From: an uncultured bacterium
Lineage (GTDB): Bacteria; Omnitrophota; Gorgyraeia; Duberdicusellales; 4484-171
Direction: 5' to 3'
Assembly (NCBI GenBank): GCA_913050175.1
Contig: CAJXAF010000001.1
Coordinates: 1,126 to 65,125 of the forward strand
Length of the DNA stretch: 64,000 nt
Both the position numbers and the translations under genes were made by a program. Position 1 is the stretch's first letter. Every line of letters begins with the position of its first letter. This document shows positions 2,195-47,217 of the stretch, piece by piece. The notes under the pieces were generated by a model. The model worked only from the letters and a program-made list of their open reading frames with translations. It was not told the origin of the DNA and did no database searches.

Positions 2195-4048
2195 ATGAAA
2201 AAACCAGTACTGATAGGTTTAATTGCTGTAGTTCTAGTATCAGGAGCTATTTTTGCTTATCACCATGTTTTTAAATCTAAAAAAGTTTCTCAGATTGAAG
2301 CTATTGTCCCTGAGGATGCTATTTACTACATGTATTCTTATCAGCCGGGTAAGAAACTGGATGAATTTTTTAAAAATCAATTTTGTAAGAAAATATCAGA
2401 CTTATCTTTCTATAAACAGAATCTTGCCGAAGAACTCGCCAAACGCCAACAAGTTTTTGATAACTTAATTGAATTTTTTAATAACGATTCAGCTATAGCT
2501 GTTTTTTCTCCCGGAATTGTCCTGCCCAAGCTTGATGCAGGATATCAGCCGGGCTTTACAGCCGGTAAAATATTATTTTTTAGTAGAATGGATGCTAAGC
2601 AAAATATAAAAAAGAAAATGGGCGAACTCTACCTTAGCTTTGCCAGCGAAGAAGAAGTCTTAGACTCAAATTATAATGGTATTAAGATAACCAGTTATAA
2701 ACTGCCAATGAAAGTTTTGGATTTGGACATGACCTTAAGCTATGCTGTTTGCGGGGATATACTTGTCTTTGGCAATGATCTCGACTCCTTAAAAAAAGTA
2801 ATCGATCTCCACAATGGTGAGAATTCAAAATCTTTATTGAATAATCCAATCTATAAAGAAGTCTCCAAAAAATACTTAAAACTAAAAGAAAATTCCTTTT
2901 TCTGGACTTTTGTTAACCACAAGGAGTATTTTAAGGAATTTCTTTCCCTGGTCTTAGCTACTCCTAGCCAAGAGTCTTCAAAGATGAATGAGTTTTTTGA
3001 AAGCTTTATGCAAATATCTAAGGGTATGATTTCTTATATTGATTTTGATGAGGAGCGTCAGGGTTTGATTTGTATGACTTATCAGATTTTTGATAAGAAT
3101 AAAGATAAAGAGAACTTCTTAGATATTTTTGCCCCGGGAAAAACAGATGGCAGCCAGATTTTTAAGATGGTGCCTCCCGGTATTCTTGCTTATATAAGTT
3201 TATCCGGTGATGTAAATGGTTATTGGAACTATTTAAAGCGCTTTATGCAGCTTTCTCAAGAAGTGTCGCAGAATAATAATTCTGCTGCTTTAGGTGCTGG
3301 GCCACAAGTTGGTTTTGCTGAGATTTTAACAATGGCTAATACTTATGCTGGCTTAGACATTGAAAGTGATCTCCTACCGCTTTTGGGTAACAACTTCGCT
3401 GCTTTTATATCCCAAATAAGAGAATTGTCATTTGCCGGATCAGGCAAACAGCTTAACCCTTTACAGCTTTTCCCTACTCCTGTACCTAGTTTAGGAGTTA
3501 TGCTTGAAGCTAAGGATAGGCAAGCGGCCGAAAAATTAGAAGACATAATCAATAGTAAAATTTTAGATAAACTAAATGCAGATAGCGAGACTAAGAGTTT
3601 TGAGTTTGAAAATTATCAAGGTGTTAATATGAAGCTATTGCCTTTAAAGGATACACCGCTTAATTTGGTAGTATTTTCTCTAGATAAGTATTTAGCTCTT
3701 AGTATTGACCTTGAATTTGCTAAAGAGATTATTGATTTGAATAAAAACGGCGGTGAGTCTTTAGCCGATGATCAAACTTATTATTTCGATAAAGAAAAAA
3801 TACTTTCTCAAGGATCTTTTTCGCTTTTTATTGATTTTCAAACTTTAATTAATAGATTGGCAGAGTCGAAATTAATTGGTTTTGCCAAACCAAGTATTTC
3901 TCTATTTACTCAGGGTCAATTCACACCACAAGATATAGACGACATCATTGATGTTTTAAATGATATTACTTTAATAGCTCAGGGTAGTAAATTTTCTAAC
4001 GAAGCCACTTGTGAGAATATATTATATATTGGCATCGAAGGGCTCTAA
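2195..4048 (+). CDS. Uncharacterized 617-aa N-terminally membrane-anchored protein embedded in the ilv-leu operon (possibly DUF3352-like, unverified)
   Basis: Single N-terminal TM helix (PVLIGLIAVVLVSGAIFAY), no recognisable catalytic motifs; 26-nt gap after ilvC and 8-nt gap before leuA imply co-transcription. Confidence 0.6.
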   Translation: MKKPVLIGLIAVVLVSGAIFAYHHVFKSKKVSQIEAIVPEDAIYYMYSYQPGKKLDEFFKNQFCKKISDLSFYKQNLAEELAKRQQVFDNLIEFFNNDSAIAVFSPGIVLPKLDAGYQPGFTAGKILFFSRMDAKQNIKKKMGELYLSFASEEEVLDSNYNGIKITSYKLPMKVLDLDMTLSYAVCGDILVFGNDLDSLKKVIDLHNGENSKSLLNNPIYKEVSKKYLKLKENSFFWTFVNHKEYFKEFLSLVLATPSQESSKMNEFFESFMQISKGMISYIDFDEERQGLICMTYQIFDKNKDKENFLDIFAPGKTDGSQIFKMVPPGILAYISLSGDVNGYWNYLKRFMQLSQEVSQNNNSAALGAGPQVGFAEILTMANTYAGLDIESDLLPLLGNNFAAFISQIRELSFAGSGKQLNPLQLFPTPVPSLGVMLEAKDRQAAEKLEDIINSKILDKLNADSETKSFEFENYQGVNMKLLPLKDTPLNLVVFSLDKYLALSIDLEFAKEIIDLNKNGGESLADDQTYYFDKEKILSQGSFSLFIDFQTLINRLAESKLIGFAKPSISLFTQGQFTPQDIDDIIDVLNDITLIAQGSKFSNEATCENILYIGIEGL

Positions 4049-11274: not shown

Positions 11275-11297
11275 ACTTTGGGAGGAGGGAGATAGTT

Positions 11298-11486
11298 ATG
11301 AAGAATTGTCCTTTTTGCGCTGAAGAAATTCTCTCAGAGGCCATAAAGTGTAAGCATTGCGGGGAATTTCTTTCAAAGAAACCAGCAGCAACATGGTACC
11401 AACGGCCATTTTCTATAATTGTTGCTTTTCTCTGTGTTGGCCCCTTGGCTTTGCCTTTGATTTGGTTTCATCCTAAGATTAGCTAA
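11298..11486 (+). CDS. Zinc-ribbon plus C-terminal TM small protein
   Basis: CPFC…CKHC zinc ribbon followed by hydrophobic helix; RBS ggaggaggg. Confidence 0.5.
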   Translation: MKNCPFCAEEILSEAIKCKHCGEFLSKKPAATWYQRPFSIIVAFLCVGPLALPLIWFHPKIS

Positions 11487-12042: not shown

Positions 12043-12411
12043 ATGCAACGTGATTCTGTAGATCGTAGGCGTTTTATTCATATTAAATTCCCCTTTACTG
12101 TTCACGTACGCCCTCTTGATAAACAGCCTATAGCTGCTTATTCCGAAGATATTAGCCAAGAAGGCATTAAAGTAACTATTAAGGACGAATTGGCAATAGG
12201 AAGTTTAACTGACTTGGAAGTTTTCATTCAGGCTGAACCTATTAAGTGCAAAGGAAAGGTCGTCTGGGTTAAAAAAAGAGATAGCAAGTATATTCAAGAT
12301 GAAATTTTTACTGACACAGGTATTGAATTTTATGATTTAAGTGAAAACAATAGTGCCTTAATCAAAGAACACATAAGTACTTTTAGTAAGACAAGCGGTT
12401 TTATTGAATAA
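12043..12411 (+). CDS. PilZ-domain protein (putative c-di-GMP receptor)
   Basis: Arg-rich N-terminal stretch DRRRFIHI, DISQEGI (DxSxxG) and GKVVWV β-strand motif; immediately downstream of REC gene. Confidence 0.6.
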   Translation: MQRDSVDRRRFIHIKFPFTVHVRPLDKQPIAAYSEDISQEGIKVTIKDELAIGSLTDLEVFIQAEPIKCKGKVVWVKKRDSKYIQDEIFTDTGIEFYDLSENNSALIKEHISTFSKTSGFIE

Positions 12412-13772: not shown

Positions 13773-13808
13773 CAGTAATTTAGAAATATTAATTAAGAGG
13801 ATTCGGTT

Positions 13809-14797
13809 TTGAGAAAATTACTCATAGTTTGCTTGCTGCTTAGCTTAATTGCTTGTAATAGCCAAACCCCCCCAAACAGAAATCCAAACTCAATGTTAGT
13901 AAGGTAGAAAGCATTGGAGCAAAATCAGATGCTGGGGCAGATATTGCTCTCAATGGTATTATTTACGATGAAGGCCAGTCTTTAGCAATAATAAACGGTC
14001 AGATTTACTATCAAGGCGATTTCATAGGTCAGAATCAGATAATTGACATAGCAAGTGATTATGTACGGTTTAAGGCCAAAGATAGTGAGGATCATTCGAT
14101 AGTAAGACTATCTAGTGATCATAAAGAAGTAAGCGACCAGAAGTATTCGAAAGAAAAGTCTGTCAAAAAGGAGGAATCACGCCAATATCTTTTTGCCAAA
14201 GCTAAGCTTATAGATACAGAAGATTATCTTATCTTTATACCTGAGAAAACTAATTTTAACGATACCTATCCTTTAATTGTATTTTTTACTCCTGATGCCG
14301 ACACCAAAGGAACACTAAAGCATTTTAAGGATCTTGCTCAAAAATATAAGTGGCTGCTTTTTATATCTAAAGAGTTTCATATTGGTGTTGATATGGCTAA
14401 GGTAATTACTGATTTAGCTCTAACAATCGAAAGTTTATCAGAGAGCCTTCCAATAGATAAGTCTAAAATAATAGTAAGTGGATTTTCAGCCGGAGCAATG
14501 GGGGCTCATTTTTTTTCTTATGCAGAGCCTAAACTTATCTCAGCAATCATAATTAATAGTGGAACAATTCACCAGGATCTCAAAGGTGTAGTAACAGGTC
14601 ATCCAAAGTCAAAACGAGTAGTTTTCCTGGCGAGTCCGACCGATTATGGATACAAGAGCATGCTAGAGGATAAGCGATTTTTAGACAGCCTTGGTTGGAA
14701 GACTAAATGGATAGAATTTAAAGGTGGCCATAGACTCGCTCCTAAAGATATATATGAGAAGGCTTTTGCCTGGCTAAAAATTCAGTTTAGAGAGTAA
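13809..14797 (+). pseudogene. Lipoprotein α/β-hydrolase (esterase/PHB-depolymerase-like) interrupted by a frameshift at a C7 homopolymer; intact reading would give ~329 aa
   Basis: TTG start 8 nt after SD aagagg gives signal peptide MRKLLIVCLLLSLIAC (lipobox) that stops at 13905-13907. Downstream frame is open from 13862 to 14797 with no ATG until 14393. It encodes GFSAGAMGAH (GxSxG nucleophile elbow) and esterase-like C-terminus. One extra C in the C7 run 13867-13873 fuses both frames. Confidence 0.65.
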
Positions 14798-14884: not shown

Positions 14885-15775
14885 ATGATAATGTCTGCAG
14901 AAAAGCATAAATTAGAAGGAAATTTAGCCAATTGTCTTATAATTGGGGCACAGAAGTGTGCAACCTCAAGTTTATTCCATTATCTTAGCTTCCATCCCAA
15001 TGTCATTGCCTCAGCCCATAAAGAGCTTAATTTCTTTAATGAGGAGCTTTGTTGGGATAAAGGGCTTAATTGGTACAAATCTAATTTTGTAGGCAAAGCT
15101 AAAATTTATCTCGAAGCCTCACCTAGTTACACAAACTATCCCTTATATAAAGGCGTAGCCAAACGAATGCACTCTTTAATCCCCCAGGCAAAATTGATTT
15201 ATATAGTAAGAGACCCGATAGAGAGGTTAATTTCCCAATACTTAGATAGAGTCAAAGGCGGTCAGGAAACTCTTGCAATCGAAGATGCTTTTGTTGAGGG
15301 AGAAGATTCTGTATATATTGATTTTAGCAAGTATTATATGCAGTTAGAGCAGTTTTTAAATTATTATCCTAAAGAATCGTTTCTGATTTTAACAGCCGAA
15401 GAATTAAAAAATAAGCGCAGAGAAACTTTAAAGAGAGCATTTCGGTTTTTAAATATTGATGATGATTTTTATTGTGATGAGTTTTCCGACTTAATAAATG
15501 TTTCACGTGGTAAGTTAAAACGGAAAAAACCAAGGAGAATTGTTCGTTATTTTGCCCATGGCCCCAAGAAAAAGACTTCTTTTAGCAAATTAGGCTATGC
15601 AATGATCCCTAAAATCTTAAAGGACAAGGCTTTAGAATCAACAAAAACAGGGCAAAAGGTCTATCGACCTCTTTTATCCGAAGATCTAAGAAATAAGTTA
15701 ATCGAAGCCCTTAGGGCTGATATAGCCAAGTTAAGGGAGTTCAGCGGATGCAGTTTTAGCCAGTGGTGTCTGTAA
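14885..15775 (+). CDS. PAPS-dependent sulfotransferase (heparan-sulfate 3-O-sulfotransferase-like family), cytoplasmic
   Basis: CLIIGAQKCATSSLFHYLSFHP (5'-PSB P-loop) and LIYIVRDPIERLISQY (3'-PB motif); no signal peptide. Confidence 0.7.
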   Translation: MIMSAEKHKLEGNLANCLIIGAQKCATSSLFHYLSFHPNVIASAHKELNFFNEELCWDKGLNWYKSNFVGKAKIYLEASPSYTNYPLYKGVAKRMHSLIPQAKLIYIVRDPIERLISQYLDRVKGGQETLAIEDAFVEGEDSVYIDFSKYYMQLEQFLNYYPKESFLILTAEELKNKRRETLKRAFRFLNIDDDFYCDEFSDLINVSRGKLKRKKPRRIVRYFAHGPKKKTSFSKLGYAMIPKILKDKALESTKTGQKVYRPLLSEDLRNKLIEALRADIAKLREFSGCSFSQWCL

Positions 15776-16267: not shown

Positions 16268-16486
16268 ATGACTCTATCAAAGTTAATGACAGTTCTGGGA
16301 TTTCTGGTGATTCTAACCGGGGTTCATAAGCTTTATTGCTCAATTAAGCCTGAGTCTGAGAGATGTTCTGTTTCTCCTGGCGAGGAGCCTTTTGAGGGAG
16401 CGACAGTAAATGAAAAGCTTTACACCTCAGGAGTTCGTTTTATTATATATGGATTTCTTATTCAATTGTTGAGGTTAGTAGTTTAA
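16268..16486 (+). CDS. Small two-TM membrane protein, paralog A
   Basis: …LTGVHKLYCSIKPESE…SGVRFIIYGFLIQLLRLVV; paralogous to ORF 16833..17063. Confidence 0.5.
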   Translation: MTLSKLMTVLGFLVILTGVHKLYCSIKPESERCSVSPGEEPFEGATVNEKLYTSGVRFIIYGFLIQLLRLVV

Positions 16487-19127: not shown

Positions 19128-19481
19128 ATGAAAGAAAGAAGACATTTTCCCAGACTGGATATAACTAAGATAGACGTTTCTTGGACAAAAGATGATAATA
19201 ACAGAGAAACTGACAAGGTAAAAAACATTGCCGGCGGTGGGATTCGTTTAATATTGGATAAGGGTAATGTTAAAATCGGTGACATAATTAATTTAAAATT
19301 TAGTTTACCTAGCGGAGATGAAATTACTTCAAAAGGGAAAGTTATTTGGGTTAGAGCTTTTGAGATACTCGGTAATAATACTGAAGTCATCAATGAAGCT
19401 GGAATTGAATTCATTGATATCAGCCAAAAAGATAAATTTCTCATTAATCAATACATATTTTCCTTAATGCCACCAAAATAA
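19128..19481 (+). CDS. PilZ-domain protein
   Basis: RRHFPR (RxxxR), NIAGGGI (D/NxSxGG), GKVIWV. Confidence 0.8.
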   Translation: MKERRHFPRLDITKIDVSWTKDDNNRETDKVKNIAGGGIRLILDKGNVKIGDIINLKFSLPSGDEITSKGKVIWVRAFEILGNNTEVINEAGIEFIDISQKDKFLINQYIFSLMPPK

Positions 19482-19494
19482 AAAGGAGGGCAAA

Positions 19495-32674: not shown

Positions 32675-33025
32675 ATGCAAGAAGAACGCCGGGAAAAAAT
32701 CAGGATAGAGGAATCTTTAACTGTTAGACATTCACCCGCTAAAAGTCTCTTTATTAGTTCATCTGAGACTAAGAATATTTCAAGCGGCGGCCTGTGTTTT
32801 CCTGCTTTGCAGAGACTGGAACCGGAAATGGCCCTGGATCTTGATATTGATTTACCGGGTTTTAAAGAACCCATTAAAGCTGAGGCTAAAGTAATCTGGC
32901 TATCTGAAATAAGTGATATTAATCACCGTTATGATGTAGGGGTGCAATTTGCAAAGATAAGTTCTACCGACCACAGTAAAATACTCCACTATATTTCCAG
33001 CAAATTCGATAATTTAAATATGTAA
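32675..33025 (+). CDS. PilZ-domain protein
   Basis: RREKIR, NISSGGL, AKVIWL. Confidence 0.8.
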   Translation: MQEERREKIRIEESLTVRHSPAKSLFISSSETKNISSGGLCFPALQRLEPEMALDLDIDLPGFKEPIKAEAKVIWLSEISDINHRYDVGVQFAKISSTDHSKILHYISSKFDNLNM

Positions 33026-33822: not shown

Positions 33823-34134
33823 GTGCATAATGAATCATTTGGACATCGTAGATCTTCTAAAAGAAGAGCATGTTTTTTAGCTGCTGGGTATTTATTGTTT
33901 GATAAAGCTCCTTACCTTGCAAAATACCATGATATTAATCTTGATGGTATAGGAGCAATAGTTGATAAACCTTTACCGGTTAATATACAGGTTAAAATAG
34001 CTCTCAATACAAAAAAGAAAGGTTTGGTTTTAGTTAAGGGCAAAGTATGTTGGTGTAAAAAAGCCCAGCTTGGCTGGCGCTTAGGAATATCTTTTAACCG
34101 TAAGCTATCGTATGAAACTACTATGATTGCTTAG
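33823..34134 (+). CDS. PilZ-domain protein (divergent)
   Basis: RRSSKRR (RxxxR), DINLDGIG (DxSxxG with S→N), GKVCWC; SD agggaggcc. Confidence 0.65.
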   Translation: MHNESFGHRRSSKRRACFLAAGYLLFDKAPYLAKYHDINLDGIGAIVDKPLPVNIQVKIALNTKKKGLVLVKGKVCWCKKAQLGWRLGISFNRKLSYETTMIA

Positions 34135-34137
34135 GTA

Positions 34138-34503
34138 TTGCTTTATAAAAATGGCTTTTTAAAAGATAAGGCTATTATGATTCAAAGAAGAAAACAAAAA
34201 AGAGTTAAAATATCATTTCCAATTGAGTGCGATTGCCTGTCTCACCGTAACTATTTCTGCTCAGTCAGCAGGGATTTGAGTTTAACCGGGATACAAACCG
34301 TAAATAATAGTTTTATACCTAAAGATAGCATAGTAAAGATCAATATTAACCTTATTGATAGATTTGTAAGCTTAAAAGCTAATGTTATCTGGAGCATAAA
34401 AAAGAGAGCCTCAGAAAGATATTCTACTGGTCTAGAGTTTATTGAAACAACTCAGGCCCATAAGAGGCATATCACTCACTTCCTACACAACCTCACTGCT
34501 TAA
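34138..34503 (+). CDS. PilZ-domain protein
   Basis: RRKQKR, DLSLTGI, ANVIWS; true start may be Met at 34177 (MIQRRKQKR). Confidence 0.75.
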   Translation: MLYKNGFLKDKAIMIQRRKQKRVKISFPIECDCLSHRNYFCSVSRDLSLTGIQTVNNSFIPKDSIVKININLIDRFVSLKANVIWSIKKRASERYSTGLEFIETTQAHKRHITHFLHNLTA

Positions 34504-34678
34504 TTAAATCTTACTGATTTACTTAAAAAACTCCTATAAACACTGCAAAATCATTCTTTACACCTATTCTAAAAGCGGTTATAATAATTGGAAATCCATA
34601 GAATTTTGAGTAGGTCTAGCCTTAATTATTGCAATAACTTGCATAAGATTATAGGTATAAAGCCCTACCCTATTTATT

Positions 34679-34754
34679 CGGGAGGTGGCCCAGTCTGGAT
34701 TAGGGCACTTGAATGGGGTTCAAGGGGTCGCGGGTTCAAATCCCGCTCTCCCGA
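34679..34754 (+). tRNA. tRNA-Pro (anticodon GGG)
   Basis: Acceptor CGGGAGG/TCTCCCG, D-arm GCCCAGTCTGGATTAGGGC, anticodon stem CTTGA/TCAAG with loop ATGGGGT, T-arm GCGGGTTCAAATCCCGC. Confidence 0.8.
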
Positions 34755-34809
34755 TTTAATAATTGTTGTAAATTTAGTATTAAACATATAGCGTGGCGAG
34801 GAGGTCAGA

Positions 34810-35178
34810 ATGAATGAATATGGTGGTTCAGAGAGAAGAGGGCATCCGCGAGTTGATGTAAATTTTGTTGTAAGTTACAGGATTCAAGAAACAGCTCACG
34901 ATTACGATCTTTCTCAAACAAAAAATTTAAGTCAAGGCGGTATGCTTCTTACAACAAATAAAAAATTTACTCAAGGTACATGTTTATCTATGATTTTACG
35001 TTTTCCCTTGATACCACAGAAAATCGAAGTTACTGGAATAATTGTAGATTCTAAAGAAGTAGTAAGAGACATTATCTATGAAACAAGAATACAGTTTCTG
35101 GATTTGGATAAAGAATTTTTCTATAAATTAGGTGAGTTTATCAAGGATAATTTGAAGGATGACCTAAAGAATGATTAA
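34810..35178 (+). CDS. PilZ-domain protein (overlaps hom start by 8 nt)
   Basis: RRGHPR, NLSQGGM; SD ggcgaggagg; stop TAA inside ATGATTAA of hom. Confidence 0.8.
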   Translation: MNEYGGSERRGHPRVDVNFVVSYRIQETAHDYDLSQTKNLSQGGMLLTTNKKFTQGTCLSMILRFPLIPQKIEVTGIIVDSKEVVRDIIYETRIQFLDLDKEFFYKLGEFIKDNLKDDLKND

Positions 35179-41344: not shown

Positions 41345-41519
41345 TATTGGGCGAAAAGGCAAAACGCCTGAAAAGGCGTTACGGCACACCAGATTTTTAG
41401 TGTGCCCTCATATTTTATATGAGGCAAAACTTAAGAACCTAAGGTCGAAAAGACTAAGGCAGTCAGTTATCGAATCATTTCTTCTTACTACCTATGGTCT
41501 TATGCTATAGGTTTTTTTA
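41345..41519 (+). ncRNA. Candidate structured small RNA / leader with intrinsic terminator (no ORF)
   Basis: Consecutive hairpins: cgcct-GAAA-aggcg (GNRA tetraloop, 41365-41378), ggcacac/gtgtgcc 7-bp stem (41383-41406), cctcata/tatgagg 7-bp stem (41406-41424). Terminal hairpin cctatgg…ctatagg + T8 (41491-41519). Possible promoter ttgaaa-17-tataca at 41287-41315. Confidence 0.35.
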
Positions 41520-41627
41520 TTTCCAGGGGCTTATTTAAGTTAAGATAAGTTTGTGGCTTATATAAATTTAGTTTACCGGTGGTTTTCTCAAAGAGAGGTC
41601 AAAATGAGTAAAAACGGAGGTGACAAA

Positions 41628-41987
41628 ATGAAGCGTATAATTTTTGGTCTACTAATTATGCTTTTAAGCTTTCCTTTGCTGACTATGGCTGATGAGCACC
41701 AAGTGAGACAAGCAGACCCGGCAAGTAAACTCGCCTATGGTATAACAGAAGTTGCTTTTAGCTGGACTGAGATACCACAGTCAATTTACTACTATTCCAA
41801 GAAACATGATCCGATCAGTGGACTTTTTCTAGGTGTGGCCGAGGGTACTGTTTTAGGTCTTAGAGATGTGGTTGAAGGTACAATTGATACAACCTTCTTT
41901 TTGTTGCCACCATATAAGACTAAAGGAAAAAGCTTTTTTGAGAAATTAAAAGATTGGGATGATAACGTATCCGATCATCTTTGGTAA
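41628..41987 (+). CDS. Hypothetical secreted protein
   Basis: Start chosen at ATG 41628 (SD ggagg 7 nt upstream) giving signal peptide MKRIIFGLLIMLLSFPLLTMA; track start (GTG 41553) lies inside the terminator of the upstream RNA. Confidence 0.5.
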   Translation: MKRIIFGLLIMLLSFPLLTMADEHQVRQADPASKLAYGITEVAFSWTEIPQSIYYYSKKHDPISGLFLGVAEGTVLGLRDVVEGTIDTTFFLLPPYKTKGKSFFEKLKDWDDNVSDHLW

Positions 41988-46863: not shown

Positions 46864-47217
46864 ATGGTAGAAAGGAGAAAATACGTACGTTTTCGGGCGT
46901 CTTTTTTGTTCAAGTTTAAAAATCACGCACCTAACGGAGCTCAGGGTGTGGTTAAAGATGTTAGCATGAGCGGTTTAAGGGTAGTTTTAGACAAATCTGT
47001 TGAGTTAGATTCCAACTCCCAACTTAATTTTTATTTACTCCTTCCCAGCCAAACTTTTGAAATATCCGGAGAAACTGTTTGGGTGGATATTTTCGATAAT
47101 AGAAAAGAAGCCGGTATTCACTTTACCAATATCGCTGATAGCTATAAAGAGGATATTTATAACTATATTTCAAAGTACTATCGTGAGGAACTAGTGCATA
47201 AGTGGTGGCAATCTTAA
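46864..47217 (+). CDS. PilZ-domain protein
   Basis: RRKYVR, DVSMSGL, GETVWV. Confidence 0.8.
   Translation: MVERRKYVRFRASFLFKFKNHAPNGAQGVVKDVSMSGLRVVLDKSVELDSNSQLNFYLLLPSQTFEISGETVWVDIFDNRKEAGIHFTNIADSYKEDIYNYISKYYREELVHKWWQS

Follow-up and report, generated by a model that had tools for sequence, protein, structure and literature searches.

Phase variation has evolved many times (PhasomeIt, PMC6321876), and the closest analogues of the locus described here are the pilC genes of Neisseria and the poly-G/C genes of Campylobacter. In Neisseria pilC1 and pilC2, the reading frame for a pilus- or secretin-associated envelope protein contains a G/C homopolymer, and a one-base change in its length switches translation (Jonsson et al. 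1991, as cited in PMC5953494). The low-GC genomes of Campylobacter contain intragenic poly-G/C tracts of at least seven nucleotides that turn translation ON or OFF; such a run inside an open reading frame (ORF) is the criterion by which genes are listed as putatively phase-variable in translation, every tract of at least eight nucleotides varies in C. jejuni NCTC 11168, and differences in tract length between near-identical genomes serve as evidence (PMC6321876). Here we describe a locus that shares the sequence features of such genes in a 64-kb stretch of DNA from an uncultured bacterium of the Omnitrophota (contig CAJXAF010000001.1, positions 1,126 to 65,125; hereafter the window), in which a gene for a putative lipoprotein esterase (13809 to 14797) is interrupted at a run of seven cytosines (C7). 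The bvgS gene of Bordetella pertussis likewise has a short poly-C run in its coding region, where gain or loss of one C causes a reversible loss of function, but it encodes a regulatory kinase and its switch has been proven by genetics.

The comparison also brings out differences. The tracts of pilC are longer (G9-20) and their switching was shown experimentally, whereas the alleles considered here are C7 and C8 and are seen at the level of assemblies. Moreover, the protein encoded in the window is unrelated to PilC, and the organism is not known as a host-associated pathogen. Campylobacter carries many tracts (over 77 genomes PhasomeIt counted 1,944 of the poly-G/C type, or about 25 per genome; PMC6321876), whereas we found one in about 73 kb. 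A further point of likeness is that orthologues of pilC in commensal Neisseria lack the tract (PMC5953494), as do orthologues of the gene studied here.

With moderate confidence, we read the C7 run as the OFF state of a slippage-generated ON/OFF polymorphism, that is, as a contingency-type locus in a near-clonal population. According to this model, the poly-C run in the linker-coding region would change its length by slipped-strand mispairing during replication; an allele with eight cytosines (C8) would allow synthesis of a PilP-like lipoprotein esterase of 329 amino acids (ON), while translation of the C7 allele from its TTG start would end after 32 codons and yield no functional esterase (OFF). 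Both alleles would coexist in a natural, otherwise near-clonal population of marine mesopelagic Omnitrophota, and switching between them would be recurrent and reversible.

The anatomy of the locus can be read directly from the DNA and agrees with the original prediction, which was made from the sequence alone and described a TTG-started lipoprotein frame that runs into a C7 tract and stops 11 codons later. A Shine-Dalgarno-like AAGAGGA (13795..13801, + strand) lies 7 nt 5' of the TTG start codon (13809-13811), and the ORF that begins there (13809..13907, +) reads MRKLLIVCLLLSLIACNSQTPPNRNPNSMLVR before its stop. Start codon, signal peptide and lipobox occupy 13809..13856 (+) and encode MRKLLIVCLLLSLIAC, with the TGT codon of Cys16 at 13854-13856. 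The homopolymer (13867..13873, +) falls into codons 20-22, written ACC CCC CCa, and in the C7 allele it is followed at the 11th codon past the tract by a premature TAG (13905..13907, +), so that the product has 32 amino acids. The rest of the gene continues in the -1 frame (13874..14797, +), which holds residues 23-329 of the C8 protein and the stop codon. This frame is open for 311 codons (13862 to 14797, with the TAA at 14795-14797), and between 13862 and the ATG at 14393 it contains no other ATG, as the original prediction had stated, and no GTG or TTG either. The internal ORF that starts at this ATG (14393..14797, +; 134 amino acids) has no signal peptide and is missing the first half of the hydrolase fold; for the C7 allele, gene callers report nothing else (P0016, NCBI and ENA). 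When the gene was rebuilt in silico, a single ORF resulted with C8 (329 amino acids) or C5 (328 amino acids), whereas C6, C7, C9 and C10 all led to truncation within about 11 codons. Changes in tract length thus toggle between full-length and truncated products in these rebuilt ORFs, as expected of a contingency gene. That one added C restores a single 329-residue lipoprotein, as had been foreseen, is borne out both by the rebuilt ORF and by an identical public protein.

A search with the repaired protein retrieved this 100%-identical 329-residue protein (P0001, from JGI 3300020423), whose 90% cluster has five members. The other four are a second protein of 329 amino acids (P0014; ENA, four contigs, the longest of 82,714 bp), a fragment of 231 amino acids at the edge of a Tara 037_MES contig (P0013), and two proteins of 134 amino acids, one from ENA (P0015) and one from NCBI and ENA on a contig of 66,737 bp (P0016), the latter being the gene-caller product of the frameshifted allele. 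A record of the exact protein comes from Tara station 037 (mesopelagic, size fraction 0.22-1.6 µm). Reading of the DNA revealed C8 in the JGI contig (L001), in an ENA contig of 82,203 bp (ERZ27286381; L002/L075) and in a Tara contig (TARA_SAMEA2619981; L003). Two further ENA contigs of 50-200 kb encode exactly P0014 and are assigned C8 from the protein, not from the DNA, so that C8 is present in five public contigs of the same near-clonal population (three by DNA, two from the protein). C7 was read in the window contig and in two short low-coverage contigs (L004 from TARA_SAMEA2620097 and L005 from ERZ840571). Beyond these, no close allele turned up among JGI metagenomes or GTDB species genomes, where we met only distant relatives, mostly of the hydrolase domain alone; the window's own species was not found among the GTDB species representatives searched for alleles. 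Look-ups of the exact products, the 32-residue peptide of the C7 allele and the 134-residue fragment, returned no record.

Both tract lengths occur on otherwise identical backgrounds. Compared with the 82-kb ENA contig, the window shows no mismatch and one gap, the tract, over 20,990 bp, two mismatches and no gap over 21,599 bp, and complete identity over 11,831 bp. In total, 54,419 bp thus contain two single-nucleotide polymorphisms (SNPs) and one indel, and that indel is the tract. The tract is also the sole internal difference in the roughly 8 kb shared with the JGI contig L001, and another 8,198 bp of JGI contigs are identical to the window. The slipped-strand switch proposed in the original prediction gains from this, since the two lengths differ on an identical background and constitute the only indel in 54.4 kb, although the evidence is at assembly level only. 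A length difference among near-identical genomes, here between assemblies, is what was found for contingency genes elsewhere. Two contig ends deserve mention in this context. The last 60 nt of the Tara scaffold L003 (2940-2999) are joined in inverted orientation via an inverted repeat that corresponds to window 15240-15254 and 16269-16283 and flanks about 1 kb (the 3' part of a sulfotransferase gene and the next ORF); we considered an invertible segment and rejected it, as the repeat is imperfect and only 15 nt long, and a chimeric contig end is most likely. Similarly, the end of L001 diverges sharply from window 11297-11345, where a small Zn-ribbon gene has its first 50 nt; the contig breaks there, which suggests paralogous or strain-variable copies of this gene.

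The 54,419 bp contain 90 homopolymers of at least 7 nt, namely 48 A7, 9 A8, 28 T7 and 4 T8 runs and the C tract. All 89 A/T runs are invariant between the assemblies, including 13 of 13 with 8 nt, which leads us to reject a homopolymer error of the long-read type (0/89 differ). Since Illumina error at A/T runs shows no significant difference from that at G/C runs (PMC4417121), the A/T runs can serve as a fair technical control; given their invariance, the prior for a technical cause to fall on the C tract would be only about 1/90 (1/14 if just the 8-mers are counted). In vivo, the mutable class consists of G/C runs of at least 7-8 nt, while A/T runs need at least 10 (PMC6321876). The control thus favours, if indirectly, a biological over a technical origin of the length difference.

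The tract is more than a chance feature of this DNA. At a GC content of 35.7%, base composition predicts 0.14 runs of seven or more C per 64 kb, and the C7 run is the sole run of at least seven C or G in the window, the next longest being three G6 runs; the rarity of such a run in a low-GC genome had been stated correctly in the original prediction. We also calculated codon usage from 48 sampled long ORFs (at least 150 amino acids) of the window, under which the spelling ACC CCC CCC for Thr-Pro-Pro has a probability of 0.007, and the remaining 11 Pro-Pro pairs of these ORFs are never written CCC CCC. A run of at least seven G/C inside the ORF, the threshold used for Campylobacter (PMC6321876), is thus present as C7 in codons 20-22. 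As the tract lies in a disordered linker just past the lipobox, an extra or missing proline should be harmless. A gene for tRNA-Pro(GGG), the decoder of CCC and CCU, is located at 34678-34755 (+), and CCC makes up 18% of the proline codons.

The C8 protein combines a PilP-like architecture (lipobox, linker and HR domain) with an esterase. Lipoprotein signals of the PROSITE PS51257 type have a basic n-region, a hydrophobic h-region and the pattern [LVI][ASTVI][GAS]C within the first 35 residues, and the N-terminus with its LIAC fits this pattern, as expected of a lipoprotein; Cys16 aligns with the lipobox cysteines of the orthologues P0002, P0003 and P0005. Lgt, LspA and Lnt did not turn up in the Pfam-annotated parts of the window, which does encode LptF/LptG, so that the cell is diderm. 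In an AlphaFold2 (AF2) model built from 12 homologues (mean predicted local distance difference test score, pLDDT, 82), the signal-peptide helix (residues 3-14) is followed by a disordered linker (residues 17-42, pLDDT <50) that holds the tract, a β domain of the GspC-HR/PilP/GspB fold (residues 48-100; 13949..14107, +), a second disordered linker (residues 104-128) and an α/β-hydrolase esterase domain (residues 133-329; 14204..14794, +; pLDDT >90 over most of it). The earlier description of a lipoprotein esterase with a PilP/GspC-like segment was therefore right as far as the folds go. Residues 48-100 adopt the small β-sandwich fold of HR domains in the model; the window's domain scored below the Pfam cutoffs for T2SSB (18.2 vs 28.4 bits) and CdsD_C (16.3 vs 27 bits), and these families were matched by five of five orthologues (best E-values 5.5e-6 and 5.2e-8). 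PilP and GspC themselves are without the C-terminal α/β-hydrolase domain. Judging by its GspC-HR/PilP-like domain, the lipoprotein would sit in the periplasm, docked on a secretin, and would not be a surface antigen; in this respect the original prediction of a surface protein is not supported. We saw no secretin gene in the annotated parts of the window.

Sequence, AF2 model and Foldseek agree on an α/β-hydrolase fold with the catalytic triad Ser227 (codon 14486-14488), Asp279 (14642-14644) and His308 (14729-14731), all in columns that are at least 90% conserved, and the predicted GFSAG nucleophile elbow (GxSxG) is present around Ser227. Profile matches of the domain to the PDB were found for the C-terminal esterase of LC-Est1 (3wyd, 1e-10) and a Thermotoga esterase (3doh, 1e-9), and Foldseek superimposed it on 3wyd with a TM-score of 0.81 (normalised to 3wyd) and a root-mean-square deviation of 2.8 Å. 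With these two proteins and with PHB-depolymerase/CE1-type esterases it has the fold, elbow and Ser-Asp-His triad in common, while sequence identity to them is only 12-16%. Pfam Abhydrolase_2 fell just short of its cutoff (22.8 vs 23 bits), and the NCBIfam PHA-depolymerase models stayed far below theirs (33.5 vs 150 and 13.9 vs 107.85 bits), the catalytic-domain match having an E-value of 3e-8. The domain is thus best described as a member of the α/β-hydrolase superfamily to which no substrate can be assigned.

Three positional orthologues of the gene were identified, all of them intact, called with TTG or GTG starts, and 36-43% identical to the window's protein. Around two of them, P0005 (L073, 36% identity) and P0002 (L074, 38%), the same gene block recurs, which comprises a response regulator, a PilZ protein, three small hypothetical or membrane proteins, the esterase gene and a sulfotransferase. 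As for the organism, the best named relatives of the ArgRS encoded in the window (57-70% identity) all belong to Candidatus Omnitrophica/Omnitrophota, a phylum of ultra-small bacteria for which host-dependent lifestyles have been proposed (PMC10066038). A distant homologue gene (3001-3570) in L049, from a genome labelled 'uncultured Bacteroidetes' (isolate MFD01188.bin.c.1), contains a G8 run at 3289.

The second C7 haplotype, seen in L004 and L005, differs from the window within 2,983 bp by two substitutions, at 14763 (A319D) and 14778 (K324R). Both lie inside the frameshifted gene and are non-synonymous, and A319 occupies a family column with a conservation of at least 90%. In 2 kb of flank, L004 and L005 show no change relative to the window, against a background of 2 SNPs per 54 kb. 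This pattern would fit relaxed constraint in a lineage that has been OFF for a while, or equally errors in a contig of about 2x coverage. The window allele itself carries no damage beyond the tract.

How far these data support a switch depends on how the competing explanations fare. A decayed pseudogene, one of the options of the original prediction, is excluded, because the downstream frame is perfect and 100% identical in protein sequence to the intact C8 copies in five contigs and because the three orthologues are intact as well. A sequencing or assembly artefact, in which the genome would truly be C8 and C7 a one-base deletion made by library PCR (polymerase chain reaction), base calling or the assembler, draws support from the five other contigs of the same population with C8 and from the low per-sample coverage (contigs of 1.5-8 kb, and in ERZ840571 a k-mer coverage of 1.9-2.4). 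It would also be the expected kind of error, as Illumina errors at mononucleotide runs rise exponentially with length and are most commonly deletions of one unit (PMC4417121). The 89 invariant A/T runs of 7-8 nt argue against it, given their similar error rates. With a per-read error of the order of 1% at an 8-mer, the consensus could come out wrong only at very low depth, whereas the window contig is more than 64 kb long. C7 is found, in addition, in contigs of another sample that carry private SNPs, and the public record of the window contig must have the same frameshift, because only the 134-residue P0016 was called from it. The support from the other sample is limited in its turn: L004 and L005 begin at the same base, the k-mer coverage of L005 is 1.9, and the two probably derive from one low-coverage sample, which makes them weak independent support for C7. 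Altogether, the sequencing error named in the original prediction has become less likely than it first appeared; we regard it as improbable, though not negligibly so.

A one-off loss, in which a single slippage would have created a nascent pseudogene in one sublineage with no recurrent, reversible or selected switching, has to be weighed alongside several observations that count against the contingency reading. A single C8-to-C7 change suffices for all haplotypes seen and reversion is nowhere indicated, at least as judged from the available alleles; A319D and K324R are what relaxed constraint after inactivation would give, although, coming from a contig of about 2x, they may be errors. The tract is, furthermore, not shared by the orthologues: in L073 and L074 the proline-rich linker is written in mixed codons with no homopolymer, and the third orthologue (P0003, L032) has ACC CCG CCC CCC, an interrupted C4-G-C6, so that the tract is lineage-specific. 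No second G/C run of at least seven was found in the window plus 9.3 kb of extra contig (about 73 kb), and with a single tract in this part of the genome no 'phasome' is visible. C7/C8 ranks among the short and slow phase-variable tracts, and a periplasmic rather than surface location may remove the usual selective rationale for phase variation. The comparison of orthologues that the original prediction had called for thus gave a divided answer, with all three genes intact and undecayed and the tract not conserved. Its absence weakens the case for a switch on sequence grounds and would not refute it, as lineage specificity is also true of known phase-variable genes such as pilC. Against a one-off loss stand the undamaged window allele, the choice of rare codons for the tract in a genome of 36% GC, which is unexpected for neutral sequence, and the reversibility of C8 tracts at appreciable rates in the species studied (PMC6321876). 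We consider such a loss unlikely. Recoding, by which the C7 allele would yield full-length protein through programmed -1 frameshifting on C_CCC_CCA (13868-13874) or transcriptional slippage, has in its favour that the X_XXY_YYZ heptamer formally fits the 0-frame and that the downstream ORF lies in the -1 frame. A stimulatory structure is missing downstream, however: folding of 13860-13960 gave z = +0.27, and 119 of 200 shuffled sequences did just as well. The C8 alleles yield this protein with no recoding at all, and a slippery site is absent from the orthologues; a programmed -1 frameshift site was accordingly rejected. Efficient transcriptional slippage is known from long A/T runs, not from C7. 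Recoding thus seems highly improbable.

On balance, we favour an ON/OFF polymorphism generated by slippage. Whether it is also selectively useful is a separate matter. That the tract is a selectively maintained contingency locus in Omnitrophota, stochastically switching a secretin-docked PilP-like esterase in an open-ocean population, is a tentative and rather doubtful extension; if true, it would imply that a planktonic, non-pathogenic bacterium hedges its bets against pressure from phage, prey or host. ON/OFF switches based on simple sequence repeats are documented almost only in host-associated pathogens, and the searched literature contained no paper that brings phase variation and Omnitrophota together. 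Should the C7/C8 difference be real, the locus would provide a concrete and checkable case of such variation in uncultured marine Omnitrophota. The mechanism is textbook, and the gain incremental. For annotation, the consequence is that the public record calls a 134-residue fragment where the true gene encodes a PilP-like lipoprotein esterase of 329 amino acids, and in a metagenome-assembled genome a homopolymer frameshift should be compared with sibling assemblies before the gene is called a pseudogene.

Apart from the esterase locus, the window shows a striking local expansion of small single-domain genes for PilZ, a receptor of cyclic di-GMP (c-di-GMP). At least seven such genes are present in 64 kb (12043-12411, ~19129-19482, 32675-33025, 33823-34134, 34177-34503, 34810-35178 and 46864-47217), several of them beside stand-alone response regulators. 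In addition, a match to the c-di-GMP-I riboswitch was detected at 41348-41474 (+) with 35.1 bits against an Rfam gathering score of 35, and it lies upstream of a 127-residue ORF (~41604-41987) that has no Pfam match on record.
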